From positions 789-64,788 of the forward strand of contig JACPCP010000012.1 of NCBI GenBank assembly GCA_016179745.1: DNA of 64,000 bases. Reading direction: 5' to 3'. Of this stretch, positions 374 through 63,924 are shown piece by piece. Below the pieces are notes generated by a model, which saw only the letters and a list, made by a program, of their open reading frames with translations, made no database searches and was not told where the DNA came from. The position numbers and the translations under genes were made by a program. Position 1 is the stretch's first letter, and each line of letters opens with the position of its first letter. This DNA comes from Candidatus Omnitrophota bacterium (GTDB lineage Bacteria > Omnitrophota > Omnitrophia > Omnitrophales > JACQLI01).

Positions 374-374
374 C

Positions 375-20142: not shown

Positions 20143-23100
20143 CTATGCCGCCACCCCGAACAAGCGTTCTCTTGCGATTGCGGAAGCGTAATAACTGGCA
20201 AAATTCTCTTCCTTGCCCCGGCGGATCGACACGGAAGAGAGTTGTTCTGTCTGGACATTAATTTTCAGAATTGAATCCGGGACCTTTTGAATCAGGGTGC
20301 CGGGCCGGTTGTGCACAACCAAGTCCAGAAGAGCGGCCTGAGCCCCTTCGTGCGCCGGCGGACGAATGACAAAACCTTCACGGTGAGCTGAGCCCTGGAA
20401 CTCCTCCAGTTCTGCTTCCTGAAGCTCCTCCCCGAGAGGGCTCGGTGGCAGGATCAGAATCGGCACCGTTCCCTCCTCCTTCTCAAAAATTTCCCGCAGC
20501 CGGTTCGGCGTCAGTCCCGGCTCGTGATATGTTTCGTGAATGATTTGGACGCCCGGGATTCGAATTTTGTCATAGCGGCCAAACGCCCCCGAACCCTGAG
20601 GCAGGACGACATAGATTTTGCTCCCCGGCAGAAGCCCGAGCGGTTCCGGGTCGATTTCGGGAATCTCATTTTCAAATCCGGCAATCACGATCGTGTGGGG
20701 CGCCTCAGAAACGGGACGGCCCGGAAACGGGGGGTGAACTCGGGCCAGATTCCCGGCGGGGGCGGCCCCTTCGCCGAATCCAAGCGCCGAGCGGAAGAAG
20801 GGGGCAAACACTGGAAGGGTGAATTCCGGCCCCGCCACGCCAAAGGTTACGAACCCTACAACCCAAAGCATATCCGGCAGCCGCCGGCCCTGACTCGCCA
20901 GCAAAGCGTCCAACCTTTCTTGAATTTTCTGTGACTGCCTTGCCTCGGAACGCCCGGCCGCCAGGGCCAGTGCGCCGTTTGCCAGGACCCAAACAACATT
21001 CTGTGGTAGCCCCGGATACGGATTTTTCCCCTGTAACACCACCATATCGGCAACGGCCTTCATATAACCCTGGGCACCCGGATCACCCAAATAGGCCAGG
21101 ACCGCATTCGCAATGCCGATGGAAAGCAAAGTCTCTTTCTCCCGGTCCGCCTCAACGGCCTCATCCGGTTTAGACGAATCAGACAATTTTCTATCCTTCA
21201 AATTCGACAGCCGGTTCTTTGCCACCCTGTTCCCCCGAATCGCCAGCATTCCATTTGCAACGGCGTCGGCATACCCGCCTAACGTTGTCAAGGCCTTGAT
21301 GATGGAATGAGAATCTTTGTCCCTGAGGAGCGTCAAGACTCCATTGGCAAGCACCCATATCAGCATGGCTTTCTTTTGAAAGATTTCTACCGGGGCTTGC
21401 GATGATAGCTCCCTCAGAATCTTTTTGGCCTTCTCTACTTGTTCTTTTCTCTGTGACGAAACCTCTCCTCCGGCAGGGGCCAGGGCCATCCCGATGACGG
21501 CAAAGAACTTTTCGAACCGCTGCGTCTCCCCGTTTTTGTCAAAGGTCACTTCACCTTCCACAAGCTTCTCAAGCTCCCCAAAGGCCTCCTCATCCCCGCC
21601 CAAGGCCAGCATCAGACGGGCCAGGGCCGTCGCATATTCGGGGCCGGAAATTTTAATTTCTCCTCTGATAAATTTCCTGAGGTTCTCGGCCTCGGAATTT
21701 TCCGGCTGGCTCCCAGCCTCAGTCTCCTCCTGCACATGGGGCACAGCAGACCGCACCTCGGAGCGGGAGGGAGCGGGTTTTGCTGTGTCCGGAGGCGTGG
21801 GGTTCCTGCCCAATTCCTCTTTGACTTTTCCAACCCCCGATGCTTCCTTGGCCGCCTGCTTCTGACGCCACTTCCTGACAATCTCAGCCTCCGCTTGATC
21901 CCTCTTGACCTTTCGGTAGTAAAACCAGGTATTCAGAGCAAGGCCGGCGGCAACCGCAATGCCTAATCCGATGTAAACCATCGTTGATATTTCCATCCGG
22001 ACCTCTGAACGCAAAGCGCCGGGTTTGAGGATGATGTTGAGTTCGTCTTTGGAGACTTTCCCCTGAGTCTCGAGCCACTTCAAGATGGCAGGGGCAGGGG
22101 TGAGGAAATTTTTCGCCACGATCGTTTGAAGTTCCCGCACATCACGCTCGCTCAAACGGCCCAAAACTTCCCGAAGCTTTTGAGACGCCTCAGGAGTCGG
22201 ATTGAGCTTGCCGCTGAGGAAAGATTTTGTCTTCGCTTCCAATTCGCTGATTCGACTCTCCGGCAAACCTCCGGCAGGGGCTTTTGAAGGCTCAACCGCC
22301 TTGTCGCCCGCCGTCACCGGCAGGGCGGCCCGGCGCACGCCGCCGGACCGTTCCCGGGCGATAGCAGCCTTGAGGCCGGCCAAACTCACATTGCCTTGTT
22401 GGGCCTTGACGACGGGAAGGTCCAGAATGAATTTCTGCGTTTCCTCCATCAACTGAACCAGTCTGGCTTGATTCGGCGCTTCAAACTTCAAGCCGAATTC
22501 GTGGGTGGTCCCCGAGAAGCGGAAAAGGGCAAAGCTCCCGTCGGCAAATTTTACCCGGACCCCGTCTTTGAGTTCGCTGATCCCGATCGCCTCCGTAATG
22601 TTCTGTGAAAAAGCGCCGCCCGACTTTTTCGCCTTCTCCGTCTGAATCGCCATTTCAAAGCCGCCGATGATTTGTCGTTTGGTCCCGTCATCCGTCGGAG
22701 CTTTGTTCCCCCGAATATCCGGCGTGAAAAATTTTCTGCGGGTCGGAAGCGCATCGAAAAGGTCCTTCAGCTGATAACTTTTCTTACCCGGCTTGATCCG
22801 GAGAAACTCAAACTGGGCTTCGTATTGACCGAGCGTGTCCACAATGTCGAGAATTTCGAGGAGCGTGCGGGCGGCGTCGTCAACGAAGTAATCCGCATTT
22901 TGTGCCCCCATCCCCCGATAGAAGACGTGGCCCGAGGCCTCGGCGGAGACATAACGGTCCTCCAACCTGGCAATGTTCTTATCGAACTTTAGCTCCACGT
23001 GATCGTTTTTAAGCTTCTCAATCTTCGCCATCTGCTCTTTGAGAAACGCCTTGTGGTGGGGGTAACCGGCCGGGATGTAGCGAGTGCCCAAAACGTCCTG

Positions 23101-26100
23101 AAGCCCATAGGCCTCAATCGTCCGCTTGAGTAGTTCTTCAATGCCGGAAGAGGCCCGGGGATCCAGCGCCAATTCCAGCTTCACTCCGTAGTTGCCCCGT
23201 TTCAAAAGCTGAAAGCCTTCAAGATTTTCCAGAATAAAACGAAGGTAAAGCGCTGCAATGATTTCTTCCAGCGCAACCAGCCGTCCGTCTTCGTCGGCAA
23301 GGCCGAGCCGGTCGCTGTCGCCATCGGGCTGGGCCCCGATCCAATCCCCGCCGCCCGCATTGCGCTGTTTGAGGTGGAGGTCTTCCAGGCGCTTCTGGGA
23401 CTTCGGATTGGAGGGGTCGGCCACGAGCGACGTCTGGGGGTTGGGGATCGTGTTTTCCCGGGCGACCTTCACGCCGAGTTTTTCGAGAAGGGCGGCCGCA
23501 TAACCCCCCGTCCCTTCACCGGCCTCCACAAGGACTTGAAAGTCCCGGTTAAATCCCTTTCTGTTCCTTCTCTGATAATGATAAAAGCCGATGTCCCGCA
23601 AGTAACCGTCAAGAAGCTTTACTTCCCGGACCTGGCCCTTCTTCGTTTTGGCGGGATCCCGGTGCGTGCCCTTGATCATCTCATCCCGGAGCGCCAGCAG
23701 CCGGGCGCCCTCGACATCGGACGGCTTTCCGGAAAGGGAATAACTGCCGTTGTCGTCAAGGAAGGCGATGACCTTCAGGCCGCTCTCATTGATTTCATTG
23801 TGGGAGGCCGTGACTTGAATGACAATGCGGTAAGGTCCCCGGGCGTCGTTCGGGCGTCTGCCGGCCATCGTTCGGGAGACCCCGCTCGGGAGGATTTCAG
23901 AAGAGAAATCGACATGGAGCCCGACGGCGGCAAAGGCATTGACCAACTCATCCCGGATTCGGGGTGTGGAATAACGGTGATCGCCCGTCAGGAGGACAGG
24001 GGACCCTTCCGGAAATTTGGAGCCGAGAACGTAGGCAAATTTCTGGAGGAATTCGGGAGTGAACTTTGCCTGCGGGCCCCGACTGTCATAAGAACGGAAA
24101 AGTTCCCGGGGATAAGGTTCGGCCTTGGGGGCAGGCTTTGCTTCTCCCGTTCCCGAGGGCGGCGCCCGGCCCCGTTTTGTTCTTTTCCCGGCCTGCGGCG
24201 CAAGCGAAGTTCCTGCTTCCAAAAGTTCTTCGCCGGTTTCCGCCGTGCCGACCCAGCCTGCCACCCGGGAGGGGATCCGTCCCACCGCCCGGACCCATCT
24301 TCCAAAGGAGCCGCTTAGATTTTCTTCGAGCTGGCGGCGCTCGTCGAGAAGGTCCGACTCCACCTGTCTCAGGAAATCTTTTCGGCCCAGAATGACCCGC
24401 TCGGGCATGGGTTCTCCTTTTGCCCCCTGGGGCCACTGAAAGATCCCGTCCGGCCCCATACTATAGGAAGAGCCGTATCCGCCTTCGAAATAATCGGACA
24501 TGGCATCATCCGTGAAAATCGCTCTCGGATTCGTCAAATCCACTTTCGCCCGCTTCAAGGTGAGAAGGATGTTGTGGCCTTCCACAAATCCCCGGATCGG
24601 CCGGTGATAATTCTGGGAAACCGCCCCCAGGAATTCATCGAGGTGCGCCATCACGGCTTGCTTTGCCCGGGGCTTCACGAGGCGGGACTCATCTCCATAC
24701 CAGCTTTGCACGACATCCAGCGCCGCATTAATTTCCTTTAAGGATTTCTGCTCGTCCCGAATATCGTTTTGCAGGGCGACCATCGCCTCCAGGCCGTGAA
24801 ATCCTTTGTGAGAAACTTTCATGAGTTCGCCTGTTCGACTGTCAAAGGGGACGCCGCCGTGCCAGTGGACATAGCTGTAATCATTCACATAGAAAAGCCG
24901 GAAATGCCGGCGAAGCCATTTGGAATATTCCTGGATCCTCGGGTCCTCTGTGTAATTGCCGTAATGGACCTTCTCAAGAAGTTTCCGGCCCATCCCGGGA
25001 TGGGCTTCGTTAAAGGCCCGGACCCGGGCGTTGTAGACAAAAATACCCTTGAGCCACGTGATGTCCTCTTCTTTTTTGATCTGCCAGCGCTCGTGGTGCG
25101 CCCGGTTCCAGCCGGCGATGAAGGCCAGGGCCTCTTTTTCGGAAGCGGACGGGTCAACGTTCAAGAGCTCAACATCCTCCCTGAGGAACTGATTGAAGGC
25201 CTCGATTTCCTTATTCCGGTTTTCGAGGAGCCGCTTCATCCAGCCCCTGTGCGTGAGTGTTTCCTGGGCCCAGAATTCTTTTGATTCCCAAGCCGAATCC
25301 ATCTTGTAAGCGTCCGATTTTGTCTTGTGGACCCCCATGAGATTCAAAGATTGCGCAAGTTCGTGATTGCCTATGATCGTCACGGCGTAACCCATCTCCT
25401 CCATCTCCCGGTAGCGGTCAAAGACCCCGAGCGGGCTCGGGCCCCGGTCCACCATGTCGCCGCCCAGAATAATGAGTTCGATATTACCCGCACCCGGATA
25501 AACCCCTTGTTCGCCGTAGGGCTTCGTGCGGCCCCATTCGCCGATCGTGGGGTCAAACTCATTATCAAAATCACCCGCCTTGCCGAAGGCCCGGGCGTGA
25601 ATCTCATCCTGACGCCGGAGCGCCGAATGCGGATCGGAAGAAGTTGAGTAATGCGGAAGACCGTTGGCGAGTCCAAGCTTGGCCCGACGGACTTCGTTCA
25701 AAAGCACGTCGACCCAGGCCTGCCTCAAACGCAGGAGCGCCTCCAGGGCCCGGCGGCGAAGAACTTCGCTGGAGCTCACCGTGTGGCTCTCAATGAATTC
25801 CCGCAGGACGGGGTGAAGATCCATCCCGGTAATTTTATTCGTAATTTTATTCAACGCCTCTGTCCGGTGCCCCGAGCGGTCATCGGTCAAGAGAATCAAA
25901 ACAGCGTCCAACTGATTCATCCGTTCGTGCCAATCCACGGGGCGGCCCCTCACCTTGCTCCAGAGATCAAGATAGGTAGTCTTCGCAAAGGCATTCAGCT
26001 TCGGGTCCCGTGGAAGCGCTTGATGCCGGTAACCGTGGTCGGCGGCATCACGAATTTGGGCATCCGGACTCGTCTGCCACCAAAATCCGAGTTCCCGGAC

Positions 26101-29100
26101 CAGGTGGGTCCGGTTTTGCGGGTCAGCCGTAATCACGCCCGCCACACGAACCAGCGTCCTTTGGAGCGCAACCGCTTCTGCCTCTCTTGTCTTTGCCCGG
26201 GGCCGCTCAGCCTGCAGGCGCTCAAGAAGAATCTTCGTCACCTCTCGATGGCGGCCCCGCTTTTCAAGATAACCCGCAATCCCGAGCATGTTGTCGGCAT
26301 CGTCTTCTCCCCGGAGGGCGGCCAGGAGCCTTGTTTCTATTTCATTAAAATTAACGCCCTTCTCCGTCCCGGCGAGAAGATCCAGCGCCAGCGACAGGGC
26401 AATCTGGCGCTTCTTATAGATCGGGCGGTTCTCCTCATATTTCTTGAGAAGGTCGAGGATGGCAGCGCCCCGCATCGGAAAGACCCGCTCAAGCTGCCAG
26501 TAGGTTTTTTGATAGGCCACGTGGAAGAGGGGCGGATTCACGTATTTCGTTTCATCGGACGTTGTGCGAAGTTCGGAGCGGCTCATAAAATCAATGGCCC
26601 GGGTCAGGGCCTCAGAGGCTTCCGGGGGCAGCGCCCCGCCCTCCAGCCGGACGGACACAGCCACGGTCTCATCCCGCATCCAACGTAAGAGCCGGCTTCT
26701 CTTTTCTCCGGCTCGAATACTCTCTTTATAAAGGAAGACACCGACGTCATTCGCCGAAAGCTCGGCGAATACCTTTTTCGTTCCGGGCCGCCGGGCCGCC
26801 TGAATTTCCCAGAGCGCCTCCACCTCTCTCACAAAAACTCCGTCCGCTTCTGGGAGCCTGAGGACCTCTGCCCAGGAGCTTTCTTCCTGGATGGAACCGC
26901 CGTAGAGCGCCTTCACCGGACCCGCCACAGATTTGATCAAACGAAGGTCCTGGGCAATGGTTTCGGAATCGAGCGGCTCCTCAGGCGTGTAAATCAGGAT
27001 CGTTTGAGACCGCTCTTTTCGGCTGAGGCCCTCGAGCAGTCCTCTGATCTCTTGTTCTCTCTCCTGAACCGTGGAACTTGCGATATGCACCAAAGGAATT
27101 AGTTTTTGCCGAAGAAGGGACTTGATTTTTCGGTTCGCCCCTGGAGGTCCCACCAAGCCGGACCCCCGGCCAAAACTCGTGGCCACGTGGACAAAAGGCG
27201 TTCCGAGTTCCCGGGCCAGGGCCAGTTCCTTCGAGCCGTCCTCGGAAACCTCGGGAATCGCCGAGGCGTGGCCTTTCAACTTGAGTTCCGTGTCGCTGGC
27301 CTCAATCTGCCGAAGACTCGTGTCCCGGGCCAGGGGCGCCACGGGCAGACGCACAAATTCTCCCTCCAGGACATCTCTCGGCTCCACCACGTCGATGGAC
27401 TCAAACGGGATTTTCCGGATGAGAGAGTTCGCTTCGTAGGCGATCTCTTCGCCGTTCAGCGAGCGCCGGGCCAAGTCAAGGATTTGGTCGTATTCCTCGC
27501 TGCGGAATTTTACGAACTGTCGGCGGTTGAGTTCGGCCTCGAGCGCCTTCGCCACACCGGTCTCGCCCATCGCCTTCTGATAGGCCACGAGCCCCGGAAA
27601 GGTGTCGTCTTCGGGGGAAAACATAATTTCATTCACTAGGTATTCCTGGATCTTCTCGGGGAAGGCCATCCATCGTTTCTGAAAAGCAAGGAGGGTGTTC
27701 TTTTCATTATTCACATAGATTCGATAAAGGCCGATGAGCGAAGGCTCGTGATACTCGGCGGGCAGGAGCTCCCGGGCCCGCCTCAGGAATTCGTCCCGTT
27801 TCAAATCATAGATGGGGTAAAGCAGGGCAAACTTCTGGTCGAGATTGAGCTGGGTGAAGGCCTTTTTGATTTCTTCCAGCTTCTTCAAATCGACATTTTC
27901 GAAACCCGGGAGCGGCGTGCCGCCTTCTTCCGTGGGAATTTTTCCGTGCTTCGGGTGCCTGAAAACCCACTCCGCCATCTCCACCATAAATTGCCGGATC
28001 TGCACCCTGAGCTCTCCCGTGCCGGTCTCGGAATCCATGGCCCTTGCGAGAAGGTCACCCTCGGCCGGCTGCATCGGGTCACCCGCCAGTTTCGCCATCC
28101 CCCGATACTGGAGTTTTTGAAAGAGCGTGGCGATATTTCCCTTGCCGATATAAGACTCCCGAAGTGAAACAAAGGCCTCAAGCGGCGTTCCTGTGATGCC
28201 GTGCTGGGCAATTTCGGTCCGGATCGAAAAAATTTCGTGCGGCGCCTCCTGGCCGAGTGAACGGTAATGTTTACGGACAGACCGATTGACCTCTTCCTGG
28301 AATTTGGGGTCCCGAATGGCGTCGCCAATCCGGCGGGTCCGCTCGAGGTCCGGGAGCTCAGTCTCGACACCGTGCGAGGTCCCGTTATGAATGGCCAGCC
28401 ACTGCGGCTTGATCCCCCGCCGAGCCAGCATCCGAAGGTAGGTCAAGGCCTCGGCCACGGTCGTAATTTCCTGGACCGGACGGCCGGTCTTTGGGTCCAG
28501 AATAATTTGTCCTGTGGCGGGATCTATCCTGGGCCGGCCGACTTCTCCGACCTCAAACTCCGACGAGGGGCTCGTGCCTTTGACGTAATTCCAGATCCGA
28601 ACGGCCCGGTCCACGTTCTCCCGAAGCCCGGCCTCTGCAATGGCCGAATCGGCTTCGAAAATTTTCCGGTCAAGTTCTGCAAGGCGTGCCGCCGAAGCGC
28701 CTGCCTGGGCGGCCGCCTCCCGCTTGCTCTTCAGTTCCAAATAGGTGAGCTGTCCGCCTTCGTCTGAAATCCGGAGGGACTCCTCCACGTCCCGGGCCCG
28801 GGCCAGATTGTAAAGGTGAGAGGGGTCCATCGCATAAGAGGTGAAGTCTCCTTCGTCCCGGAGGCGGGTGATATAGTCCCGGGTCGAAAGAAGGTCGGCC
28901 GGCGTTCCGGTGCGGATCGCCACGTGATCGGCGTGAAGGATGATCGGGACTTTTGCTCCCTGACGACGGATTTCGTAATAAAGGTCCTCCGCCAGCTGGA
29001 CCGGATCATACGCATAGCCTGCCTCGGAGCGGGCAATCTCCACAATGATGGGAACACCGAGAAACTTCGCCGTTCTCACAATGGCCCGAAGAATGATTGG

Positions 29101-32100
29101 GCTTCGGGCCGTGGCCGCAATGGTAATGCCGTTCAAGCCGTGCCGCCGATAGTAAGCCCGAACCGGTGTCCCGGGCACGAGCCCATATTGCAGGTAATAT
29201 TCGCTCAGCCGTTTTAAATTGGGGTCCAGCGCCTCGAGCACCTGAAGCGCCACTTCCCGGGTAACAGGGTTAGTCTTCTGATGGCGAAGATCAAAAATCA
29301 GCCGGCCCAGATTTGAACGTTTGGAGAGGTATTCCCTGTGCTTCCTCGGGTCCTTGATCTTCACGATGTTCGTGGTTACTTCCCGGCGCCGGTCGAGATA
29401 ATCCACAACCGCCCGGCTCCCCCCCTGATAAAGCCGGTAGATCAGCCGGGTCGCATAGAGAAGGGTCCCGGCCATCGCCACTCCCTTGACGCCCGTCACG
29501 GCGTCCTTCGGAAGGAGTTTCAGGACAGCCTTGATCTTTTCCTTGAGCGCCTCATCATCCGCCTCGTCCCTCAAAGCGGCGGCCAGCTCCCGATAACGTT
29601 CCTTCAATTCGTCCGGATAACCTTTCACGGCCTCTTCCAACTGACGCCTGACACCGGGCTCATTCGGCCTCGCCTCTGCCCAGAGATACCGAATGAGCAA
29701 GAACAGGTAAGCGCCTGCTGTGGCGTAATTCGCAAGGGTGATGAGCCGGCCTGCGGTGGTGTGAGGGTCTCTGGCCCTCGGGTCGAGAAAATGGGCAAGG
29801 GCCCCGGCGGCGCCGAGCGCTGACTCTTTGGGTTCTGCCAGGACTTCTCCGACTTTTCCGCCGACAAACTTCGTCATCTCAACGGCGCTTTTCCCTCCCC
29901 AAACGGCGGTCCGGGCCGTCGTGTCCGAAAGTCTCAGGAAGAGGATGAGCCGGGTGATGGCGTGATCGGCCCGGTCAAACGGAGTCAGGGCCGTGTTTCC
30001 CTTGCGGGTAATCGTGTCATTGATAGCACTCACCGCCGTTTGAAGCTGGGTCCCGAGCTTGGGATTCACCCCCCACTCCTCCACTTTGACTTTGTCCAGG
30101 GGGTCCCGAAGCCATTCTGTTAAATCGTCAATGCGTTTGGGAAGGAACTCTGCAGCGTAGTCCTGAAAATCAAAGACCAGCCCTTGAAGCACCCCGCCGA
30201 TCATGGCCGTTCTTTGATCACCGAGGTAGCGCTCCGACAAGGCGCTCAAGACCGGAAGCGCAATTCGCACGGTCTCAAGAACGTAGCGGTAACTTTGCAG
30301 GAGCGACTGGATCCGGGCAACATTTTCTTCCGTCAGTTCGTCCTGGCGCCCGATTTTTTCCTCAAGCGCTGAGAGCTCCTTTCGAAGGGTTTCGAGTTCG
30401 CCGGCGAATTCATTCAGGCGGGCCAGCTCGTAAAGCGGCTCTTCGAGCGTATCCCGGAGAAAATCGTCCTGCTCGAGATCTCTCACCTCTCCCACGAGGG
30501 AACGGCTTCGCCACCAGAGACGGGTCGCCTCTGGGAGGTCCGGAATCCGCCGGGACACCGCCCGGCCGTGAACATAGGCCTGAAGCACGGCCTGGATTCT
30601 TGAAATCTTCGCCTGCTGCAGGGCAATTTTATAATCCACGTGCCCGGTCTGAATCACTGTGGGTTTCCCTTTGTGCACCTTGAGATCAAAACTCAAGTCC
30701 GTTCCCGGAATCTTGAACCTTCCCCCATTTTGGACAACCGTTCGTGTCTCGGGCCCCGGACCCGGCAAACCTTCGATCTGGACCCACCCCCCCTCCCTCG
30801 GCATCAGGGTCAGGGTCAGCCTGTCCCAGTTCGGAAGATCGAGAATGACCCGTGACTTGTAAAGAGGAGGCACGACCCGCCCTTCGGGGCTTGTAAAGGT
30901 CAGGGTTTGATCTTTCTTGTCAAACTTCAATTGGTAAGGCCTCGGCGTTTCGGGCGTGCCAAACTCCAGGGTGAGCGGCCCGTCCGAGACCCGGTCCGTG
31001 ACCGTAACCCCCCGGGCATTGACATAGCGGACTTCTGCCTGATCGTCAGAAATCACATTCACCACGACCTTGTGGTTTGTAATTTCTTCTCCGGGAATTG
31101 AAATCTCGTAAGTTTGGTTTGTGTCAAGGCGCCCCTCGATCGGAGGGATTGGCAGCGCCGTGCCCCGGATAAAATTAAGGGCCGCTTCTTTGATGATCCC
31201 GAGCCGGCTCGTGGGTTCGGGAGTTCCGAAAAGCGTGTCCACAAGATAGATCAAGGCCCTCGGGGCCAGATTCCAAAGCCAGCCCGTGGCCTTCTCGGCA
31301 TTTTCGACGATGCCGGCGCCGATCATTTTCACGAAGAAATCCCTGAAGCTGAGACCAAAGCTCGCCTTGAAGACATCCGCTCCCCAGTGGGCCATGGCCA
31401 TCCGGCGCTGAAAGCTCTCCAGCTCCTCCACGGCCCGGTCAATCCGGGTCTGGTCCCGCCCGGCCTCCCGCTCCTCTTCCGGTGTCAGCACCCGCCCCTG
31501 AAATTCCTCGACTTCGGCAAAATCTTTAATCTCCTCCGCCAGCGTCGTGCGGGTCTTGAGGACGCCCCTCACGTCACGCCAGCTTGTAAGCTTCTCCACC
31601 AAAAGACGCCGGAGTTCCTCAAGGTCCCGGTCCCTCAAGATGACCGCCTGGTAACGGTTGATTTCCCGGTTTGCGGCCTCCGCCGTCCCCACTGGGCCAA
31701 ACACCTGAAGGTGCGGAATGATCCCTTCAAAACCCTCCTCGTCCCGGTTCTGGATATTTTCCACAATGTCCCGCCGGACCGCCCTCGGAAGGATCCGGTT
31801 CCATTCCGACTGATACGGCTTCAAGGTATTTTTCTCATTGTCCCGATAAATGACATAAAGGGCCTGAACGACTTCGGGGCTGAACTTTCCAAGCGTTTGG
31901 ACATTTCTCTGAAAGGCCTGGGTCTCCGGATGCACATCCGGTTGAATCGTAAAGAGGGGAAAAAGAATTTCGAAAAGCCGGTCCCGGTTTTTCTCCTCCA
32001 GGCCGTCAACGCCTTGCTTCAACGTGAGCGAGCGAAACGCCAGCTTGAGCCGTTCGAGCTCGGCGGTGTTCACGACTTCGAAACCGGGTTTCGGCGTGCC

Positions 32101-53100: not shown

Positions 53101-56100
53101 GGAGGCATCGCCCAGTTCGCTCAGCCTGCCGGTCACCGGCGCCACACCCGGAAAATCACCCAGCCGGTGATTGAGCCCGCCCATGAAAACTTGCAGCCAC
53201 CGGTTCCCCCGCTCCACGATGCGGCGCAGGATGTCGTTTGAAATCGTGCCCGTCACATCATAAGCGACACGCCCCTCCGCTTCGCCGGTGGTGGGAAACC
53301 TCCGGGTCCTCCCGTCCGGGGCAAGGATCCTTCCACGAACCAGGGGACGAGTATAGGCCCCGGCCGCCAAAATCAGACGTTGGGGCTGGACCAGGGCCTT
53401 GATGCGGCCGGCCTGATCGCTTAATTCACTCACCCCTTCCGCAAACGCATGGGCCCGGACCACATTCAAATCATGAGGACGAATCGAATGCACACGATCG
53501 TCAGGGATCCCATACTGGCTCCGGCTTGATTCAAGCGCAGGACCGAGGTAAGCCCAATCCCGGGGAAAGAACCAGCCCCCTTCGATCCGTTTCTTGAGAA
53601 GGGAGTGATTCAGCCGAAGAAGGATTCTTCGCAGGACGGGAATCCTGCTCAAAAGGTGGAAATAAATAATTTCGAGGGCTCTCCTCCGGCGTTTTTCAGT
53701 GTCATTCACGCCGTAAGCGCTCGCTTCCCGCTGGTCCTGGATCTCGATAAACCGACCGGTTTGGCGCCACTCCTCCAGCTTGTCCCGGTGGCGAATGTCC
53801 TGCTGGGCGGCCTCCCGCCGGAGCGATTCCAAACGGGCCAGGATCCTGTTATCGGCCAGATAATTTTGTTCGGCCACTACCGTTTCACCGGCCTGAAGCC
53901 AATCGTCAATCCGGCGAATGCTCTCATCGGGATTCAGGGGGTCGAGCGACAAAAATTTTACCGGATCCTCTTCGGGCTGGGGAGCCGCAAGTTTTCGGGG
54001 CGGCGAGAGGGAAGCGATTTTTCCGTCAAACTCAACTTCAGAATACGGAACAAACTCTTTTTCGATTTTGGTGCCGGGCCGGTTTTTCTGGCCCTTCACG
54101 AATTCACGGCGGCGGTAATACTGGGCCGTCCGGCCGAGAATTCGAATGAAGCGGCGCACGTGAAGCGGTTCGCCCCCGGGACCTTCGCCGGGCCTCCGGA
54201 AATGGCGGTTGAGCCATTCATTCATCTCCCGGCTCTTCAAATCGTCCAACTGCCTGAGGCGGTCCTCTACTTCCTCGAGACTCTTCGATTCCCAGAGGAG
54301 CCTCAGGAAGGCCCGCTCTTCGTCCAACTCATTGTTTTTGGCGTAAGCTTGAATGCGGGTCAACAGCACAGTGCGGAATTGCCGCCCGAGCGCCCCCTCC
54401 TGAATGCGGCCCCAAACAAACGGCACTGTTTCCCACAAGAACCAAGCGAGAGCCAAAGGCGCCAAGATGGCTGCAGGCGCAACGAACCAGGCGGGCAAAG
54501 AAACAAGGAGAGAGATTCCAAAAAGAGCCAAAACGGTGACGGACAGGGCATAGGGCACAAGTCTCGTGAAAAAGTGACGCCAGAAGCCGAAGCCCTCAAA
54601 GTCTCCGGGGCCGGCGGGCCATCCCCCGTGAGGAGGACGGGGAGGCGCCGGCGGTTCCTGAATCTCCGGAACCGTGAGCCGTTCAATCGGGGCGTTGAGC
54701 GCTTCCCGTGATTCTCGAACCAGATTACGGCCTGCGGCCGTCCGGACCCGGTAGAGCGTCAATTCAATTTGAAGACCGCCCAGACGGTCTCGAAGAATGT
54801 CCCTGAAGTCTTCAGTCATATCCTCCCCGGTCGGCCCGGGCAGAGCGATGGATTCAAAATAAGGGGTCAGATTGACATCGGCAAAAAAATGGGTTTGGGG
54901 ATGAACTATTTCCATCACAACGGTTTCGGGGTCTCGGCCGGGCTCGGACTCCAGTGTCCCATAGACATAAAGCCAGCCGTTTCGAATTATCATTTTGGGA
55001 TCGACTTCCACGGGCAGGTATCTATCAATCCAACCCTGGACCGAATTTCGCCAGGCCTCCCTCGCCATCACCCAGGCCTGTGTCCCTGCCGGATCGAGCG
55101 GATACTTTTTCCGGATCCTGGCCGTCATTTCTTCAAGAAGGCGGGCCTTTGTTTGATTTCTTTCGAGGGCCGATAGAATATTAAGGCGCCCCTGAAGTTT
55201 TCTTTTCTCCCACCAACTGAAATACCGGTCCAACGCCACGGGCACCGTCGAGCGAAGCGACTCCTGCCAGGCCCGGTTCACCTTCTTGAGTAACTTCCCG
55301 TCCGTCCCTCCCTGCCGCACCTCGGAGCGGGGGAAATGGAGAGTGCCGCTTGCGATTTTGCGTCCTTGCGTGTCGAGGACCTTGAAAGGAATGATGTCGC
55401 CGAGCAGGCCGGCGACCCCGCTCCGGAGAGGAAAGTGGACTGAAGGCCGAACGCCGTTTGTCAACTTCAGAGGGTAGAATCTCCTCGTATCGATTTCTTT
55501 CTTGATCCCAACCGCCGGTGAAACATCGAGTGAACCAGACGCCCCCTTGAGCTGATCAAGCTGTCCTTTAAGGAGCTGCTCCACCAAATCCAACTTTCCG
55601 TTGAGGAAAATCCCTCCTTTAAAGAGCGCTGCCCCTTCATCATCGATGACGAAACGGACCCCAAGCCCGAGGTGGTCAAATCCCCGGAAGGGGGCAAGCG
55701 ACTCGAACAGGAATTCCCCCTCGTCTTGCGACAACTTGGAGGGCGCAATCACCAACTCTTCATGGGGGGATAACGCCGTCTCAATAAGGGAAGAAAATTC
55801 CTTGAACCTTACCGTAAGCCGCCCGGGATCACCGGCCGCCAGCGCAACCGAGCCGATCTTGGCAATCACGGTGAACTTCTGCTCTTCTCCGCCCCGATTC
55901 CCGGCCAACTCCGCCAAGATCCACACCTCTTCCCTTGCGTAGAATTCCAGCGCGCTCTTGAGCCCCCGAAAGAAGGACGTGGCTGTCCCCCGCACCTCGG
56001 CGCGCGAGCCGAGAGAAAGTTCTAGAGGGGCGGGCGCCCCTTCCCCCAACACCATGCGTGGAACACCACGGATGGAGGTATCGAGTCCTCTAAACTGCCC

Positions 56101-59100
56101 ACGAAGCTGCACTCCGCTTTTCGAATCACGAATCAAAATCCGGTGACGGTCGAACTCGACCTTCACGCCTGGTGGAGTTTTAACTGATTGGTAGGTTCCG
56201 TCGGTTTTGACAATCGTAAGCGGGGGGGGCCACCCTGACCAGCTCCCCTGAGGTCCGGCGACAAGAGGGCCAAACGTATTGTAAATGTCAAAAGAAGGGT
56301 CCGTTAGGCTCCGCCATTGGTTCGTCACTGCGTCGTAAAGTTGAATGGTGTCCGGCAAGAATAATTCCTCGGCGACAGGAAAGAGCTGAGGGTCCCCCAC
56401 CATATGAAGGACCAAGGGATACTTCGAATCGGGATAAATCTGAAGCGCTTGCGCCATAATCCATTCAAGAATGGTTTGTGCAACTCCGTCTTCGTGAAGT
56501 GTTTTTTGGACAGGCACTACCAGATTACTGACCCGCAACCTTTCGGGAAAGACTTCGATGGTCACACCTCCCTCGATGTTCCTGTCCGGTCCAATTAAGT
56601 GATAAAAGTGTGTGCCCTGATTGCTAGACGGATCTCGAACAAGAAGAAGGCCGGTTGGGAATACGGGGTGCGGTAAGTTCACGATCTTCTTAAAATAGCT
56701 CGGCGCAGCCTCGATCGCAGGCGTTTTCCTTGGAGCCTTATCAGGATCTTCATTCAAACGGTGATACTCGTAGTCGCTTCCAATTTTGTTGTGAGCGTCA
56801 TGCAATACGTCGACCGCTGCCTTGACGGCTCGAAACCTAAAATCCCGCTCCGCTTGCGGCACATTTCCAAGATTCTGGGCCATGTCAAACAGCTTCCTGA
56901 CCGTTCCCGAATAGCCGATGTCAGGGCCATAATCCTCGTGATAAACGACGCCGCCCTTCAAATTCCTCATTTCAAGAAAGGGCTTGGTCTTTTCCGTCCC
57001 CAGATTGATTTCAAGAGTCCCCTTGGTCCCTTCAAGGATCATATAATAGGCATTCGTGTGCACCCCCTTCCCTGCACCCAAATCGACCACGACGCTCCCC
57101 ACATTCCCCACCACACGGGCATAAGTCTCCGTCTCTCCGGGGGCGCCCCGATAACGCCAAAAGGAACTTTGATCCTTGTGAAGTTGAAACCGGCCAAAAC
57201 TAATTCCAAATTTTTCGAACAGAAATTCCCCCAACGCCACCAAGTGCACCATCATGTCCATGCCAAGCCCCCCGCCGCTCACGGCAGGATCCACAAGCCA
57301 TTCCCGTCCGTGCTCCACTTCCACATTTTCAATCATCCGTCCCCGCATGGCCCTGAGTTCCCCGAAATTTTCTTCCTTGAGCAGTTCAAACGCCTTTAGC
57401 GCTGACGGGTTGTCAAAAAAGAAGTCGATAGGAAAAATCATATTCTTTCCACGTCGATAGGTGAACTCGAAGGCATCCATATGTTCCGGGAGGCCGAGCG
57501 GCTTTTCCACAAACACCTGCATTCCATGGTTGACGGCCCAGGCCACAATATCCAGATGCGTATCGGGCCGGGTGACTACGAGCACCCCGGCAGGGTCCAG
57601 CGCCAGCACCGATTTCAAAAATGCCGTATCGGGCCCCTCAATCGGACGGTCAGGAACCTGGATATAGGCCGAATACGGGAGACTCATTCTCGCAATTTTC
57701 GCCCCGGCCGGAATTTCCCTCATCAAATCGACGGCAACAAGTTCAATATTGAAAACCTGTGCGAGCCGATTGATGTGTTCTTGGTAAAAGCGGGGAATGA
57801 CCGCGCCAAGCCCTCCATAAACGATTACTTTTTTCTTCGGCAGGGTTCCTTCGCCGGGAAGGTCGAGCTTTGCGATATCGGTAATCGGTGCGATGTGGAC
57901 TGCCGTGGGCGTAACGGGGTTGATTCGAGCGAGGGCACGCACCACGGGCCCTCGAATGGCCGGGTCTTGGACCCAGGAGGTTAAGGCAGGAATTGCGTCT
58001 GAACCGATCGCCGCCAAAACATCTTCAATTCTTTCTTCTAGTAACTTATCTTCCTCACGGAAAGCTTCAATCAAGTGCGGCACCGCAATCACACCCAGGT
58101 GCTTCAGCCCATCGGATGCAACCTCCCGGACCTTTTCATCTGGAGATTTTAGGAAATCGATTAAGACCGGAACGGCCGACACGCCTTGTCGGGTGAGCAC
58201 CCCCTGGACTTCATCACTATTTTTTGATGAGGAGATTAAATTACGAATTCTCTCGTAGGTCGGACTGCCGCGAGTCAGATCGGGAAAGGTCGGGTTCGAT
58301 GAGTGGAACCGTTTTCCTTTTTGAGAACGAAACCAAGCGTTGAGAGAACTTCTGAGCCAAGGTAATTCTTTGTTTCGCCGGTCATTAATTACAAAATCCC
58401 AGCCCTGGATTACTCCTTCTTCATCAAAAGTAATCTTAACGAAACCTTTGTACAAAACTTGATCTGTCAGCGCTTCCCTCGCCACCCCATAGGGCGTTGC
58501 CCTGACATAAAGATCATAAATATTTCCTGGATGTCCAGACGGGCCATACTTCAGAGTAATCGAGTGGTGAGTTGTCTTGCCAAGTTTGGGATCAACCCTG
58601 GCATCAAGCAGGGAGATACTTCTCAGCCTCCCATCCTCCCAATACTCCGGCTGGAGAAAAACCGGAGGCGTGGGCGTTTCGGCGGATCGGATCTCTGAAC
58701 GAGGTTTTCCTCCGCCGGGAGATTTCGCCTCGGCCACATCAATAATGACTTGCCCCCGGAAATGTTCGTCTGGTTTAAGAGTCACCGGGGCCGCTTCCGT
58801 TACACCCCTTTCAAACATCTGGAAGGCATTCGTGGAACTCGTCTGGGATTCAACACTGATATTAGGCAGGCCTGCCTCATCGGGAGGGACCCAAAAGACT
58901 ATGTGTTTGAATCCTCCGCTTTGAGAAATGGTAATCTGTTTTCCTGTTATCGGATCCTGAAGCGTGGATCGAGCAAACCCATCGGAGTCAAACCTGAGCC
59001 CCGTGTAAACATCATCATAGATGTCCCCTCCCAGCACCTTGCTTTCAGCGAGGGCGTGCCTGCCGGTCGCCTCAAGCAACTTCCCGGTAGGAATCATATC

Positions 59101-62100
59101 CTCACGAGCCTCATAAACCTTTGTAACGGGAAGGGTCGCCTTGACATGATTCCGCCAATCCAGAGGCATCCGGAAGTAGGGATGAAAACCGAAACTCATC
59201 GAAAAGTCACTTGTGCCGAGATTGACGATGTCGGTTTCAACCGTCAGCCGATTCCCTTTCAACCGGTAGATCACGGAAATCTTAGCCCGGCCAAAGTAGG
59301 TTTCAATCGGTGTTCCGGTACCGTCATAACTGCTGCGGATAAAGACCCCGTCGTTGGTCATCCCGGTTTCTTCCACGATCCAAGGAACGTGCCAAACCAT
59401 TCCGTGAATCATATGCGTATCAATCCGGTAAACCTGGTGTCCGCTTTCTAACCTCTTCCTGAAATCGGCCACACTTAATTCTTCAAGGAGATTCACGATC
59501 GTTCCGTCGGGCCTTTTAATTTTTCCGCCCTCAATCCGATTAACAAACGGCCACATGATGGGAAAACCTCCAACGGCGTTTAAATCTTCTGGGAAGTAAA
59601 AGATTTCTTCCGGGGTGTCGCCCGTGAACAGCACCTTCATTGAAACAATCGTGTTCCCCCGATCAGGCATTACGACGATCGATGAGTTCGATTGCTTATC
59701 AACTAAGCGATACAACCGGTGGTCATATCCTTTCCGGGTAAACTCTTCGATCCTGAAACTATCCGTTTCTTTAGAATTGAGAATCGATTCCTCTTCCGGC
59801 GAAGGGGCTTCCCCCGGACCCATCACCTGATGAGCAAGGGCAGAGAACTCTTTCGGATCGACACTGGCGCGGCCGACGAGGACGCCGTCAATGCCGGGTC
59901 TTGCAAGAAACAGCCCAACGTTTTCGGCGTTGACTCCCCCGCCGAAAATGATCCGCACCTTCCCCGCTGCTTCAAGTCCGTAAAGGTTGAGGAGGGCATA
60001 GCGAATCAGGCGATGCATCTTCTGGACTTCCTCCGGAGCCGGTTTGAAATGGATCGGCTCGTATTCAATAACAACCCGAGAGAGTTCTTCGGGCTTGACG
60101 CCGTTTAACCGGGCCGCCACCTGTGCCCTCATCCGATCCAGCCGATCTCTTCCGGCATGGTCTACGGCGTTCTCCGAAACCGCGAGCACCACGCCAAACC
60201 CGTTTGCCAGTGCCGCCTTGATTTTCCTGTTAATCACCTCAGGCGGCTCGCTCACCCCGGTCTCAAGCTCATCGCCGCGCACCCGCTCCGAATGTCCCGC
60301 GAGGACATAACGGACCCCGAACTCCCTGAGACTCTCCACCGGCGTCTGGCCTGTCCCCTTCCCCGGCTCGGCAGATGAAATGTCCTGGGCAAGAAGGTCA
60401 ATTGCTTTGTTCCCTTCCAAGACCTTGCTCACCGCTGAAAGGTGGGCATCAGAAGGTCCTATTAGAATCTCTCCTTTTCCGAATCCACGCGGCAGATGCG
60501 CCGAAATCGACCGGGCAAGAACTAATGCGTCTCGTTCCCTAGGTAACAAGGTCTTCCATAGACCCACGAGAACCGGCGCCCGCACTGCCTCCTCTGCCTG
60601 CTTGAGCCCCTCGATTGCTTCCAGATCCTCAAACGTTTTGACCCTCCTGCCCCTCGTTTCCGAGCGGAGGGTCAGGATCATCCGGAGCTGCTGGGCGCCT
60701 GCCAACACATCTTGTTCACTTCCTTCTGAACGCTGGATCGTGATAACGTCAATTTGCAGTAACCGGCTTCCACGGATCAAATCGGTGATGTCGACAACCC
60801 CCTCCGTTTCATGGACATCCTTCTGGAGAGAGACCGTTCGAGCCTCTTCTTCCTTTGATGACCGAGCAAACTGAACGCCGACTCGCTTTCCCCAGAAGTG
60901 CCGGGGAAGGACCAACTCGGCCTTCTCGATCCTCTCCGCCTCAATCCGGGCCGGTTGCACCAGTATAAATCTGTTGACGCCCTCACGGATCTTCTGCTGG
61001 TCTGCCGGCAGCAGGACCGGAAGGTAGGCAAAGAACTGTAACCGCTTGGATTCGGAGGCGCCCTCTCCCCGCACCTCGGCACGAGCTTCGATCGAGGGCA
61101 CCTCGGAGCGGGGGAGCTGCTCGACCCATTCGAAGCGCTTTTGAACCATCTCTTCCCTCGTGAAACGTTCTACGCCGGTCACCGACCCCCAAGTGTATTT
61201 CCTCTCCTGTCGACTCCAGCCGGCCGGCACTGCCACGAGGATTGGGCCACGGCCTTTCCTCCCCTCTTCAAGATTGGTCACGAGCAAGTAGCGTGGCAGG
61301 GTCAGGGCGCCCTGCTTTTCCCGGAAGCGCAACACGATTCCGAGTTCAGCTTTTTCCGGCGCTTGCTCCGTCACCTGCTGCCATCTGAGTCCGTCCTTAT
61401 TAAATTCCTCCTCACTCCCCCGCACCTCGGAACGGGGGAGAGAGTCAATGGCCGCCTGGATCGCGCGCCTCACGGTCGGGTGATTTTCTTCCCTTAGGGC
61501 CTCAACCAAAATCTGACGGACGATTGATACCGCCTCTTCGTTCCGTCTGGCCATCGAAGAAAGGTCTTCTGCCGCACTGACACGGTCCGACACCGCCGGG
61601 TCGTCTAGCAGCCCAGATAACCTTTTTATGACTGCTTCATCTTCTTCGCTAAGCCGCACCTCGGAGCGGGGAGTCTGCTCTCGCAGATAGTTAGCGATTT
61701 CATTCAGGATTGAATCCTGAGAGCCGCCATCCCAGCCGCGCCGGAGGGTGTCGATACCCATCGGATCGATATGAAGCGTTGTCTGCCATTGGCGGGACAT
61801 CCAAATTTGTGGGGGGTTCGGGCCCTTGGGCACTCCGAAGTAAACACGAAAGATGGGCTCTCTCGGACGCCCCTCGTCCGGCCGCCACTGCCGGGTCCCA
61901 TCGACAACGAAATATTCGGGCTCTTCGCCTGGTGCGGGCCGGACATGCCCCATAACCAGTTTTCTTCTAACGGTCTCCTCCTCCACCCGCCTGAGACTTT
62001 GAACCCGCTCCTTGAGGAACTGCAGAACGGTGGCGGCATCGGGGTTGATCGGGGGGGCATGGTTTTCTTCGAGCTGTGCCGGATCCGTGATCAGCCGCGC

Positions 62101-63924: not shown

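Follow-up and report, generated by a model that had tools for sequence, protein, structure and literature searches.

A giant multi-enzyme protein of an uncultured Omnitrophota bacterium: sugar-phosphate enzyme modules, cysteine exclusion and a recurrent linker pentapeptide

Giant open reading frames (ORFs) occur across the phylum Omnitrophota, whose members have been described as epibiotic predators or parasites (Seymour 2023, PMC10066038). Among the closest described relatives of the system considered here are the "Archaeovorins" (West-Roberts et al. 2023, 10.1101/2023.11.21.568195), Omnitrophota giants with HEAT repeats and many transmembrane (TM) helices, among whose less common domains are TIM, GPI, FBPase, PGM/PMM and FBA; their glycolytic domains and HEAT repeats were predicted with TMHMM, under an explicit caveat, to be extracellular, and cleavage of the chains was posed as an open question. 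Among 916 Omnitrophota proteins of at least 10,000 amino acids, Nielsen & Lui 2026 (10.64898/2026.06.07.730766) recognized a class of 'multi-enzyme metabolic clusters', together with a module of co-occurring sugar-metabolism domains, PGM/PMM, receiver and histidine-kinase ATPase domains among them. The main text of both preprints mentions no embedded PGK or GAPDH, catalytic-residue status, pseudoenzyme copies, Cys content or linker motif. Here we analyze a stretch of 64,000 nucleotides (henceforth the window) from a Candidatus Omnitrophota metagenome-assembled genome (MAG; GCA_016179745.1, contig JACPCP010000012.1, positions 789 to 64,788), which contains a giant ORF of 43.8 kb, here termed g1, and the smaller ORFs g2 and g3 (Table 1).

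We conclude that g1 is a real gene of giant size in an uncultured Omnitrophota bacterium, and that its product is an unusually complete and compact representative of the giant multi-enzyme proteins already described from this phylum. The chain is anchored by approximately ten or more TM helices and carries, from the N- to the C-terminus, a TIM-like module, an aldose epimerase, a GFO/IDH/MocA oxidoreductase, PGK, two successive pairs of a dead and a live GAPDH, a cupin-type PGI, two aldolases, a dead TIM-like module, a metallophosphoesterase and PGM. These are very diverged additional copies of enzymes acting between hexose phosphates and 3-phosphoglycerate. Judged by their residues, most of the modules keep catalytic positions under purifying selection and some are dead copies. 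We consider it fairly probable that the live modules function as a tethered array acting on sugar phosphates.

Modules of the giant protein and their catalytic residues

Pfam scans, run on g1 in tiles of 1000 residues with overlaps of 280, returned matches above the gathering score to TIM, Aldose_epim, the GFO C-terminal domain, PGK, Gp_dh_C, GPI, F_bP_aldolase and Metallophos, and likewise to PGM_PMM_I/II, PALP, Response_reg and iPGM_N. An initial annotation, made from the letters and their translations, had placed TIM, aldose epimerase, GFO, PGK, cupin PGI, two class II aldolases and PGM within a few residues of these matches, and the HEAT repeats and TM segments that it described between the enzymes were recovered by Pfam and as hydrophobic segments. 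Other parts of it had to be amended: the four GAPDH modules that it named do have GAPDH-like folds, but only two look active and two are predicted to be dead; its FBPase-3-like metallophosphoesterase is a metallophosphoesterase, but profile searches of Pfam, NCBIfam and PDB sequences gave no support to the FBPase-3 label; and its iPGM-like module in the next ORF does have an iPGM_N domain, but is partial, the substrate-binding domain being the only recognizable part. The second TIM-like module was absent from its list.

Additional HEAT/ARM-like matches are present at residues ~763-837 and 1916-1967 of g1, the GFO/IDH/MocA module also has an iolG-like NCBIfam match (E 1.5e-6), and at least three Gp_dh_C matches fall within residues 7331-9180 (E 2e-19 to 1e-14). 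The chain contains two internal repeats, namely residues 7338-8241 with 8353-9179, each comprising a GAPDH-like region of ~400-500 residues followed by a clear GAPDH, and residues 10031-10771 with 11407-12148, which correspond to the two aldolase units and are up to 62% identical; the GAPDH and aldolase copy numbers are thus the result of internal duplications. The ~170 residues ahead of each aldolase unit (ends 29200..29700 and 33355..33850, reverse strand) are mutually homologous and end in HEAT-like 'DPxVR...AL' helices, and helical-repeat linkers are therefore part of the duplicated unit.

Between the GFO/IDH/MocA and PGK modules lies a region of ~4,400 residues (~2400-6800) without any Pfam match even at E<=1, with TM clusters, seen as hydrophobic segments, at residues 3122-3164, 4171-4231 and 5563-5752; the unknown membrane modules of the initial annotation correspond to this region. 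RSEVR sites, discussed below, cut it into pieces, of which the three largest are ~1.2-1.35 thousand residues long and have one TM cluster each; BLAST among the pieces found no mutual similarity. A search of all unannotated stretches at Pfam E<=1 gave no firm match, a weak TIM match (E 0.068) aside, and three-orthologue profiles of two inter-module stretches had no match among PDB sequences.

The GAPDH-like modules display both fates of the embedded enzymes. By alignment to canonical GAPDHs, GAPDH 1 and GAPDH 2 keep the GxGRIGR/K NAD P-loop, the S-C-T-S-N nucleophile motif, His176 and Arg231. GAPDH 1 has GxGRIGR and SSSSCTSN with Cys8061 (nt 39742-39744), and GAPDH 2 has SCSSCTSN with Cys8987 and Cys8990 (nt 36955-36966); the phosphate-site (Pi) region after His176 is remodelled in both. 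An AlphaFold2 (AF2) model of pseudo-GAPDH 2 joined to GAPDH 2 has a pLDDT of ~85-95 in its active half, and GAPDH 2 in this model matches solved GAPDH chains with Foldseek TM-scores of 0.85-0.89. Pseudo-GAPDH 1 and 2 have lost the NAD P-loop and show the replacements Cys149->Pro and His176->Val, changes that are common to the orthologues, in which these copies are ~60% identical. The residue set and fold of type I GAPDH were thus found in two of the four modules; the TIGR01534 score is 133 against a cut-off of 367.

The main TIM-like module scores 141.9 in Pfam (threshold 20.1), and 147, 90 and 77 with three NCBIfam equivalogs (cut-offs 883, 293 and 131, respectively). In an alignment with PDB sequences its Lys12, His95 and Glu165 are present, Asn10 is replaced by Leu and the loop 6 lid is ~5 residues short. 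In the second TIM-like module His95 is replaced by Thr and the lid is gone, and the Glu of the 'YEP' motif is present. This stretch gave the weak Pfam TIM match noted above, and only a profile of the three orthologues reveals it, all 15 PDB matches being to triosephosphate isomerases except one to a TIM-like isomerase (best E 6.5e-5). Judged by these residues, two of the GAPDH-like modules and one of the TIM-like modules are clearly predicted to be catalytically dead.

The PGK module (Pfam score 154, threshold 27) keeps, by PDB alignment, Arg38, Arg65, Arg122, the AHR motif, Lys219, Glu343 and the GGG hinge, with Asp23, Asn25 and His62 replaced, and its motifs are conserved in the orthologue L001 (see below). 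The cupin PGI has the His-His-Glu-His metal ligands (GHGH..E..H) in all three orthologues and an insertion of ~20 residues. Both aldolase units keep LHADH, HNGTSHG, QHGITG and KGN, and the equivalents of Asp109/His110, His226, His264 and Asn286 are invariant in five copies from three genomes, with NCBIfam scores below the cut-offs. All five metallophosphoesterase motifs (DxH, GDxxDR, GNH[ED], HGG and GH) are present and conserved in three orthologues; this module matches the generic Metallophos profile, with ApaH/Pnkp-like motif matches, and its AF2 model from a single sequence was unusable (pLDDT 38.8). The PGM module retains the phosphoserine loop TASHN(E/P/S), the Mg loop DGDSDR, the sugar loop EASGH and the phosphate loop RFSGT. 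In the iPGM-like module of g2 no DGWG or metal-site motif and no metal/Ser phosphatase core is recognizable, and Thr stands at the Ser62 position according to our own motif register, which is not a tool alignment.

When 185,579 species genomes were scanned with patterns from both aldolase units, two further loci, L001 and L002, were found in two other MAGs. L001 is an unbroken frame of 6,931 residues, collinear with g1 residues 6808-13725 at 51% identity; L002 covers g1 from residue 8204 to the C-terminus in two frames. The C-terminal 7,800 residues of g1 are thus collinear with L001/L002, and the collinear orthologue is 51% identical over 7,101 aligned positions with the modules from PGK to PGM in the same order. 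Identity is 55-80% in the enzyme modules and 25-45% in the linkers. The frame of L002 changes in the first aldolase unit (~6533..6759; g1 residue ~10480) and the L001 ORF ends within the PGM module (g1 residue ~13725); either may be an assembly error, a real split or a truncation.

An exhaustive profile search of 1.84 billion representatives yielded 121 relatives of the aldolase unit, the long ones being fusions (Metallophos+FBA, FBA+PFK, TIM+GlpX-like+FBA and FBA+TIM+PGM), and scans of metagenome contigs with aldolase and GAPDH patterns found no relative. The clade of this giant protein is rare. Neither a 1,427-residue PGK+GAPDH query nor the phosphoesterase module retrieved a homologue from an index that apparently lacks giant proteins: in the same index a 396-residue GAPDH query retrieved canonical GAPDHs of ~335 residues only, its own protein being missing.

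These observations bear on the alternative that the folds form a scaffold or adhesin of pseudoenzymes, which would bind ligands or partners such as sugar phosphates, the prey surface or each other and would perform no canonical catalysis. The dead modules speak for it, as do the main TIM-like module without Asn10 and lid, the iPGM-like module without a recognizable core, the PGK module without Asp23, Asn25 and His62, and module scores that all lie far under equivalog cut-offs; furthermore, glycolytic enzymes are familiar as moonlighting surface adhesins. On the other hand, Cys has been purged except in the GAPDH active-site motif, where the nucleophile is kept in three genomes; the PGM, aldolase, PGI and phosphoesterase signatures are invariant at an overall identity of ~50%; and the dead copies in the same chain display what relaxed catalytic constraint looks like. 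We regard a purely non-catalytic scaffold as decidedly unlikely.

Reading frame, cysteine exclusion and linker pentapeptide

The g1 frame is under selection over its whole length, and its ~14.6 thousand stop-free codons are beyond chance. It contains three Cys codons against 305 and 457 in the other two frames of the same strand, the corresponding counts being 0, 107 and 150 for g2 and 0, 22 and 28 for g3. As a frameshift would give a burst of Cys codons and none is visible, the g1 frame appears intact throughout, and the single stop-free frame of 14,593 residues proposed in the initial annotation is confirmed by its ATG start, the lack of stops and this frame-specific Cys-codon avoidance. Long ORFs on the forward strand inside g1 and g2 were taken as shadow frames, and an Rfam scan of the whole window found no RNA family and thus no hint of introns or ribozymes within the ORF.

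It could still be argued that g1 arose from separate genes joined in mis-assembly, or that its frame is non-coding or due to chance. The contig comes from a short-read MAG, L002 has its frame break in the first aldolase unit, and the N-terminal 6,800 residues of g1 are without an independent assembly, which also tells against a single tethered array. However, the same 64,885-bp contig is obtained from both the NCBI and the Logan sources, L001 is an unbroken collinear frame, and both the frame-specific Cys avoidance and the linker motif described below span the whole of g1 and continue into g2 and g3. An artefact of this kind is thus very improbable.

The products of g1, g2 and g3 together comprise 20,609 residues with three Cys, at g1 residues 8061, 8987 and 8990. 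All three are within the S-x-x-S-C-T-S-N active-site motif of the two live GAPDHs, Cys8061 and Cys8990 being the equivalents of Cys149. L001 and L002 keep the Cys of the GAPDH motif, and L001 has one extra Cys in that of GAPDH 1. Their only Cys outside the GAPDH motifs form a CxxC pair ahead of aldolase unit 2, at positions corresponding to g1 residues 11433 and 11436, where the protein of the window has V and Y. We ruled out a proteome-wide poverty in Cys, given that four ordinary genes at nt 2-1191 encode 4 Cys in 400 residues (1.0%); off-frames have 2-3% Cys codons, and other long relatives of the aldolase unit have 0-0.8% Cys and are seldom as extreme as g1-g3. No other observation argues as strongly for putatively catalytic GAPDH modules as the exclusion of Cys outside the GAPDH active sites, which also suggests an unusual constraint on the entire g1-g3 cluster. 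A low Cys content is likewise seen in giant secreted adhesins.

Exported proteins are known to avoid Cys as an adaptation (Daniels et al. 2010, PMC2823432). The likeness lies in long exported proteins that are nearly Cys-free, as fits non-reducing compartments; that study concerns whole proteomes of aerobic Firmicutes, whereas here the exclusion is confined to three clustered genes, whose products are only putatively exported, in a probably anaerobic bacterium of Gram-negative type. The exclusion, with its sparing of GAPDH sites, is apparently a new detail.

This raises the possibility that the modules are exported and lie in the periplasm, on the surface or facing prey, where they would act on phosphorylated metabolites, NAD and ADP that prey releases or that are drawn from it, a proposal compatible with the tethered array. 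Consistent with it, the Cys exclusion is specific to g1-g3, g2 begins with a textbook Sec signal peptide (basic n-region, hydrophobic core of 19 residues, AWA/E), by which its two pyridoxal phosphate (PLP) modules would be exported unless a TM segment was missed, and TM helix 1 of g1 resembles an N-in signal anchor, though without a signal peptide. The extracellular prediction of West-Roberts et al. 2023, with its caveat, and the predatory or parasitic life of Omnitrophota (Seymour 2023, PMC10066038) would also fit. Against export, GAPDH, PGK and PGM need NAD+, ADP/ATP and sugar phosphates, which are normally scarce outside cells; the conserved TM hairpin in the enzyme block is K/R-rich on both flanks; g3 is equally Cys-free but has neither a TM segment nor a signal peptide, so that the exclusion of Cys does not necessarily imply export; the number of TM helices in the clusters is ambiguous; and Nielsen & Lui 2026 give a TM-only topology to 46% of the long proteins, whose bulk they read as cytoplasmic. 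The K/R-rich flanks of the internal hairpin would make the block cytoplasmic, whereas the last TM helix, whose most positive flank is the C-terminal one, points the other way. The cofactor needs and the hairpin flanks thus point to the cytoplasm for the enzyme block, whereas the Cys exclusion, the g2 signal peptide and the N-in anchor of g1 point outside. We regard export as a tentative possibility, at clearly less than even chances.

The second property shared by the three proteins is the pentapeptide R-[AS]-E-V-R, with 15 copies in g1, 11 in g2 and 4 in g3, i.e. 30 against 0.13 expected (~200-fold) and a maximum of 3 in 2,000 shuffles. None of the 19 sites of the relaxed motif in g1 falls inside a recognized module, although modules make up 36% of the length (p~2e-4). 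The motif stands at aligned linker positions in L001 and L002 as RSEMR or RSEVR between diverging flanks, and L002 has five copies of RSEMR where 0.004 would be expected. Across 40 other long relatives of the aldolase unit the motif is absent save for one RSELR, and it is thus specific to this clade. A literature search for it returned nothing relevant, and it matches no known protease specificity. The codons CCGAGGTGCG are shared by 19 of the 30 sites, and the other 11 encode the same peptide with other codons. CCGAGGTGCG contains in frame the Shine-Dalgarno (SD)-like hexamer GAGGTG, and GAG+GTG is used at 63% of motif sites against ~18% expected from codon usage. As a main explanation we rejected a DNA or mRNA element, because 11 sites use other codons, near-miss peptides are rare, and RSEMR of the orthologues cannot contain GAGGTG, Met being encoded by ATG only; a secondary role at the mRNA level, for instance in pausing ribosomes between domains, is conceivable. 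The conserved linker pentapeptide is apparently a new detail, and we propose it as a candidate processing, docking or sorting signal.

If the signal is for processing, g1-g3 would be polyproteins from which a dedicated protease, cutting at R-[SA]-E-[VM]-R, frees groups of modules, namely TIM+epimerase, GFO, PGK+pseudo-GAPDH, GAPDH/pseudo-GAPDH/GAPDH/PGI, both aldolases, phosphoesterase+PGM, and TM-containing pieces; this too is compatible with the tethered array. The excess of the motif and its absence from modules argue for cleavage, as do the 11 sites with different synonymous codons, which imply constraint on the peptide, and the persistence of the motif at aligned linkers of L001/L002 despite diverging flanks; cleavage is, moreover, the question left open by West-Roberts et al. 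2023. Yet Pfam detects no protease domain in the window, the sites fit no known protease and do not part individual enzymes, two of them abut the N-side of TM helices, which would equally suit a sorting or docking signal, and the motif could be a binding site (e.g. for HEAT repeats) or a modification site; at the 19 CCGAGGTGCG sites the SD-like hexamer also makes an mRNA-level role possible. Dedicated cleavage is accordingly to be seen as a minority prospect, if a serious one.

The proposed sugar-phosphate array

Returning to the tethered array, we propose that the live modules would act on sugar phosphates as a metabolon held together in one chain. The dead copies of GAPDH and TIM, together with the aldolase duplicate, would provide built-in partner subunits that mimic the tetramer and the dimers of the free enzymes (four GAPDH folds, two aldolases). 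Net flux would run towards hexose phosphate: if the phosphoesterase acts as an FBPase, there is a module for each step from 3-phosphoglycerate (3-PG) to glucose-1-phosphate, with the exceptions that both TIM-like modules are defective and that the 2-phosphoglycerate (2-PG)/3-PG step has the partial iPGM alone. As the glycolytic direction would have to do without phosphofructokinase (PFK), it is more economical to assume a flux towards hexose phosphate. With its Ser/Thr-dehydratase-like modules, g2 could feed amino acids into pyruvate, the steps from pyruvate to 2-PG not being in the window. The Cys exclusion and R-[SA]-E-[VM]-R would reflect a shared handling of g1-g3, by export or processing.

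The two readings offered by the initial annotation, a membrane-tethered metabolon made as a polyprotein and enzyme-derived scaffolds or pseudoenzymes, are each partly right. The first has partial support: real enzymes are suggested by intact signatures in PGM, the phosphoesterase, the aldolases, PGI, two GAPDHs and most of PGK and by the Cys retained in GAPDH active-site motifs, and a polyprotein by the linker motif as a candidate processing site. The second suits the two dead GAPDHs, one dead TIM, the main TIM without Asn10 and lid and the partial iPGM.

Several observations weigh against the tethered array. The order of the modules follows the pathway only loosely, with four inversions among seven steps (one-sided p~0.035, our own count). 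The main TIM-like module, with the Asn10 and lid defects given above, is separated from the other sugar-phosphate modules by ~5,400 residues and several TM clusters. Pfam recognizes no enolase, pyruvate kinase, pyruvate phosphate dikinase (PPDK), PFK or hexokinase in the proteins of the window (to E<=1 on the unannotated parts), as the initial annotation had already stated for all of these but PPDK. The phosphoesterase module has no match to FBPase of any class, including class III (PF06874), in Pfam, NCBIfam or PDB sequences, and the gluconeogenic direction therefore rests on context. Every module scores far below its NCBIfam equivalog cut-off (TIM 147 vs 883/293; GAPDH 133 vs 367; PGM 83 vs 439), and substrate specificity may accordingly have changed. 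In the AF2 model of pseudo-GAPDH 2 with GAPDH 2 the pTM is 0.57 and the pseudo half has a pLDDT of 30-70, so the model is uninformative on the packing of dead against active copy. Finally, the topology signals (hydropathy and positive-inside) conflict, and TM counts are ambiguous in three clusters.

A more far-reaching combination, which we think unlikely, is that the products of g1-g3 are exported, then cut or docked at the pentapeptide, and make up a machine that faces the prey and performs sugar-phosphate chemistry on prey metabolites, NAD and ADP. If true, substrate-level phosphorylation by GAPDH/PGK and deamination of Ser/Thr would take place outside the predator cytoplasm, bacteria would have a novel way of predation and of energy parasitism, and Cys would have been purged for export with only the GAPDH active-site Cys, including the catalytic thiol, retained.

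Whichever of these holds, the giant proteins of Omnitrophota are among the largest known, and an example of 14.6 thousand residues has a size that can be studied and is unusually easy to read. It gives a residue-level view in which some embedded enzymes are kept intact and others as predicted dead partner copies. The Cys exclusion and the linker pentapeptide are simple signatures that can be tested across the class and bear on the questions of export and cleavage; the motif predicts exact candidate cleavage or docking sites, and Cys-codon avoidance offers an assembly-independent check of reading-frame integrity for such genes.

Of the neighboring ORFs, g2 encodes a protein identical to GenBank MBI2167125.1, labelled by NCBI itself as from a Candidatus Omnitrophica/Omnitrophota MAG. 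An ORF of 269 residues (3689..4498, reverse strand) with one RAEVR occupies the stretch from g2 to g3; it is Cys-free save for its last 25 residues, which overlap the g3 start. Probably g3 is longer, with a frameshift, from a sequencing error or real, near nt 3700-3750. Downstream of the cluster (2..1191, reverse strand) are an ORF of 88 residues, a PemK/MazF-type toxin (611..931), a ribbon-helix-helix (RHH) antitoxin-like protein (378..611) and the N-terminus of a class I Trp/Tyr-tRNA synthetase (2..382), which runs off the window.

Table 1. Features of the g1-g3 cluster (nucleotide positions in the window; aa, amino acids)
Feature	Residues (aa)	Nucleotides	Strand	Basis or remark
g1, giant ORF	14,593 aa	20143..63924	-	ATG start, no internal stop
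R[AS]EVR motif	g1 124	63541..63555	-	
R[AS]EVR motif	g1 150	63463..63477	-	directly before TM helix 1
TM helix 1, signal-anchor-like	g1 155-175	63400..63462	-	K/R-rich N-side
HEAT repeats	g1 ~265-450	62575..63132	-	Pfam HEAT_2 E 7e-18
R[AS]EVR motif	g1 527	62332..62346	-	one of 19 sites with CCGAGGTGCG
R[AS]EVR motif	g1 753	61654..61668	-	
R[AS]EVR motif	g1 831	61420..61434	-	
R[AS]EVR motif	g1 948	61069..61083	-	
TIM-like module	g1 1118-1365	59830..60573	-	Pfam TIM E 3e-41; PDB 9quu alignment E 1.5e-31
Aldose 1-epimerase module	g1 1417-1727	58744..59676	-	Pfam Aldose_epim E ~2e-21
GFO/IDH/MocA oxidoreductase module	g1 2110-2315	56980..57597	-	PF22725 E 1e-7, PF01408 E 6e-5
Region of no recognizable family, ~4,400 aa	g1 ~2400-6800	43525..56727	-	
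R[AS]EVR motif	g1 2641	55990..56004	-	
R[AS]EVR motif	g1 2866	55315..55329	-	
R[AS]EVR motif	g1 4054	51751..51765	-	
R[AS]EVR motif	g1 5402	47707..47721	-	
R[AS]EVR motif	g1 6689	43846..43860	-	before PGK
PGK module	g1 6827-7286	42067..43446	-	Pfam PGK E 6.5e-45
Pseudo-GAPDH 1	g1 7331-7700	40825..41934	-	NCBIfam TIGR01534 E 8.6e-9; alignment
R[AS]EVR motif	g1 7716	40765..40779	-	aligned with RSEMR in L001
TM hairpin between pseudo-GAPDH 1 and GAPDH 1	g1 7737-7831	40432..40716	-	also in L001
GAPDH 1	g1 7859-8236	39217..40350	-	PDB 1dbv E 2e-32; alignment
Pseudo-GAPDH 2	g1 8353-8736	37717..38868	-	internal repeat of pseudo-GAPDH 1; alignment
GAPDH 2	g1 8737-9179	36388..37716	-	alignment, AF2, Foldseek
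Cupin-type PGI	g1 9312-9472	35509..35991	-	Pfam PF06560 E 4e-19
R[AS]EVR motif	g1 9981	33970..33984	-	aligned with RSEMR in L001 and L002
Class II FBP-aldolase unit 1	g1 10190-10780	31585..33357	-	Pfam F_bP_aldolase E 9e-23 (from ~10227)
Class II FBP-aldolase unit 2	g1 11575-12150	27475..29202	-	Pfam E 1e-13 (from ~11611)
Degenerate second TIM-like module	g1 ~12258-12383	26776..27153	-	three-orthologue profile vs PDB
Metallophosphoesterase module	g1 12760-13125	24550..25647	-	Pfam Metallophos E 2e-5 (~12812-12947)
PGM/PMM module	g1 13274-13838	22411..24105	-	PGM_PMM_I/II E 1.5e-10 / 6e-9 (13274-13547); NCBIfam E 2e-23
R[AS]EVR motif	g1 13972	21997..22011	-	directly before last TM helix
Last TM helix	g1 13979-14003	21916..21990	-	RSEVR directly before
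R[AS]EVR motif	g1 14054	21751..21765	-	aligned with RSEMR in L002
g2, ORF	5,186 aa	4562..20122	-	Cys-free; start ~20 nt past g1 stop, co-oriented
Putative Sec-type signal peptide	g2 1-36	20015..20122	-	MRPFQKKLQQR-hydrophobic-AWA/E, from sequence
PLP enzyme module 1, Ser/Thr dehydratase-like	g2 625-896	17435..18250	-	PALP E 6e-21; NCBIfam
PLP enzyme module 2, Ser/Thr dehydratase-like	g2 ~1970-2295	13238..14215	-	PALP E 1e-19; NCBIfam
Response-regulator receiver domain	g2 3134-3214	10481..10723	-	Pfam E 1e-9
iPGM_N substrate-binding domain	g2 4396-4524	6551..6937	-	Pfam E 2e-17; TIGR01307 E 6e-26
R[AS]EVR motifs (11)	g2 977, 1373, 2315, 2515, 2923, 3284, 3620, 3707, 4540, 4813, 4979	span 5174..17194	-	first bases 17180, 15992, 13166, 12566, 11342, 10259, 9251, 8990, 6491, 5672, 5174; 15 nt each
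g3, ORF	830 aa	1254..3746	-	Cys-free; HATPase_c (histidine-kinase ATPase) at nt 1953-2267
R[AS]EVR motifs (4)	g3 28, 274, 409, 618	span 1881..3665	-	first bases 3651, 2913, 2508, 1881

Comparison with known systems

Chains that perform several steps of one pathway, with domains in pathway order, are familiar from fungal AROM and from type I fatty acid and polyketide synthases (FAS and PKS), and mammalian FAS, like g1, has dead copies in the form of pseudo-KR and pseudo-ME. The substrates of FAS and PKS are carrier-bound, and these megaenzymes are soluble and an order of magnitude smaller than g1. A natural fusion of two of the enzymes found here is the Thermotoga-type bifunctional PGK/TIM protein, whose model NF010569 is the top NCBIfam match of the TIM-like module (E 7e-43) as well as of the PGK module (E 1e-29); in that fusion the domains are adjacent parts of a soluble protein of ~650 residues, whereas in g1 they are ~5,400 residues apart and score 147 and 103 against a cut-off of 883. 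The mitochondrial TPI-GAPDH fusions of stramenopiles (PMC3527533) and glycolytic metabolons likewise link consecutive glycolytic enzymes, covalently or physically, in a way that is taken to favour channelling or co-localization, but the fusions are eukaryotic, combine two canonical enzymes, are neither giant nor anchored by TM helices, and have no dead copies.

Among the giants of the phylum itself, the Archaeovorins (type: the 39,678-residue protein of Velamenicoccus archaeovorus LiM) share with g1 the many TM helices, the HEAT repeats and the presence of TIM, GPI, PGM/PMM and class II aldolase in one chain, with a phosphatase here where that study lists FBPase; HATPase_c, present here in g3, is common among them. 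Their genes exceed 90 kb and encode at least 30,000 residues, against 43.8 kb and 14,593 residues for g1; according to Pfam the window has no SecA_DEAD, C39/S8 peptidase, GT5/GT1, methyltransferase, NUDIX, TPR or PPDK; and PLP-dehydratase, PGK and GAPDH modules are not in the text of West-Roberts et al. 2023. The glycolytic domain set of the Archaeovorins is nevertheless present in g1 in full, except for a recognizable FBPase. The multi-enzyme metabolic clusters differ in that TIM, PGK, GAPDH and FBA Pfams and cleavage are not in the text of Nielsen & Lui 2026. Their likeness to g1 extends to a length of at least 10,000 residues, to many distinct Pfam families of which none dominates, g1 having ~12 with at most 2-4 copies each, to TM helices, to PGM/PMM, receiver and HATPase domains, the latter two here in g2 and g3, and to domain duplications that are old at the nucleotide level.

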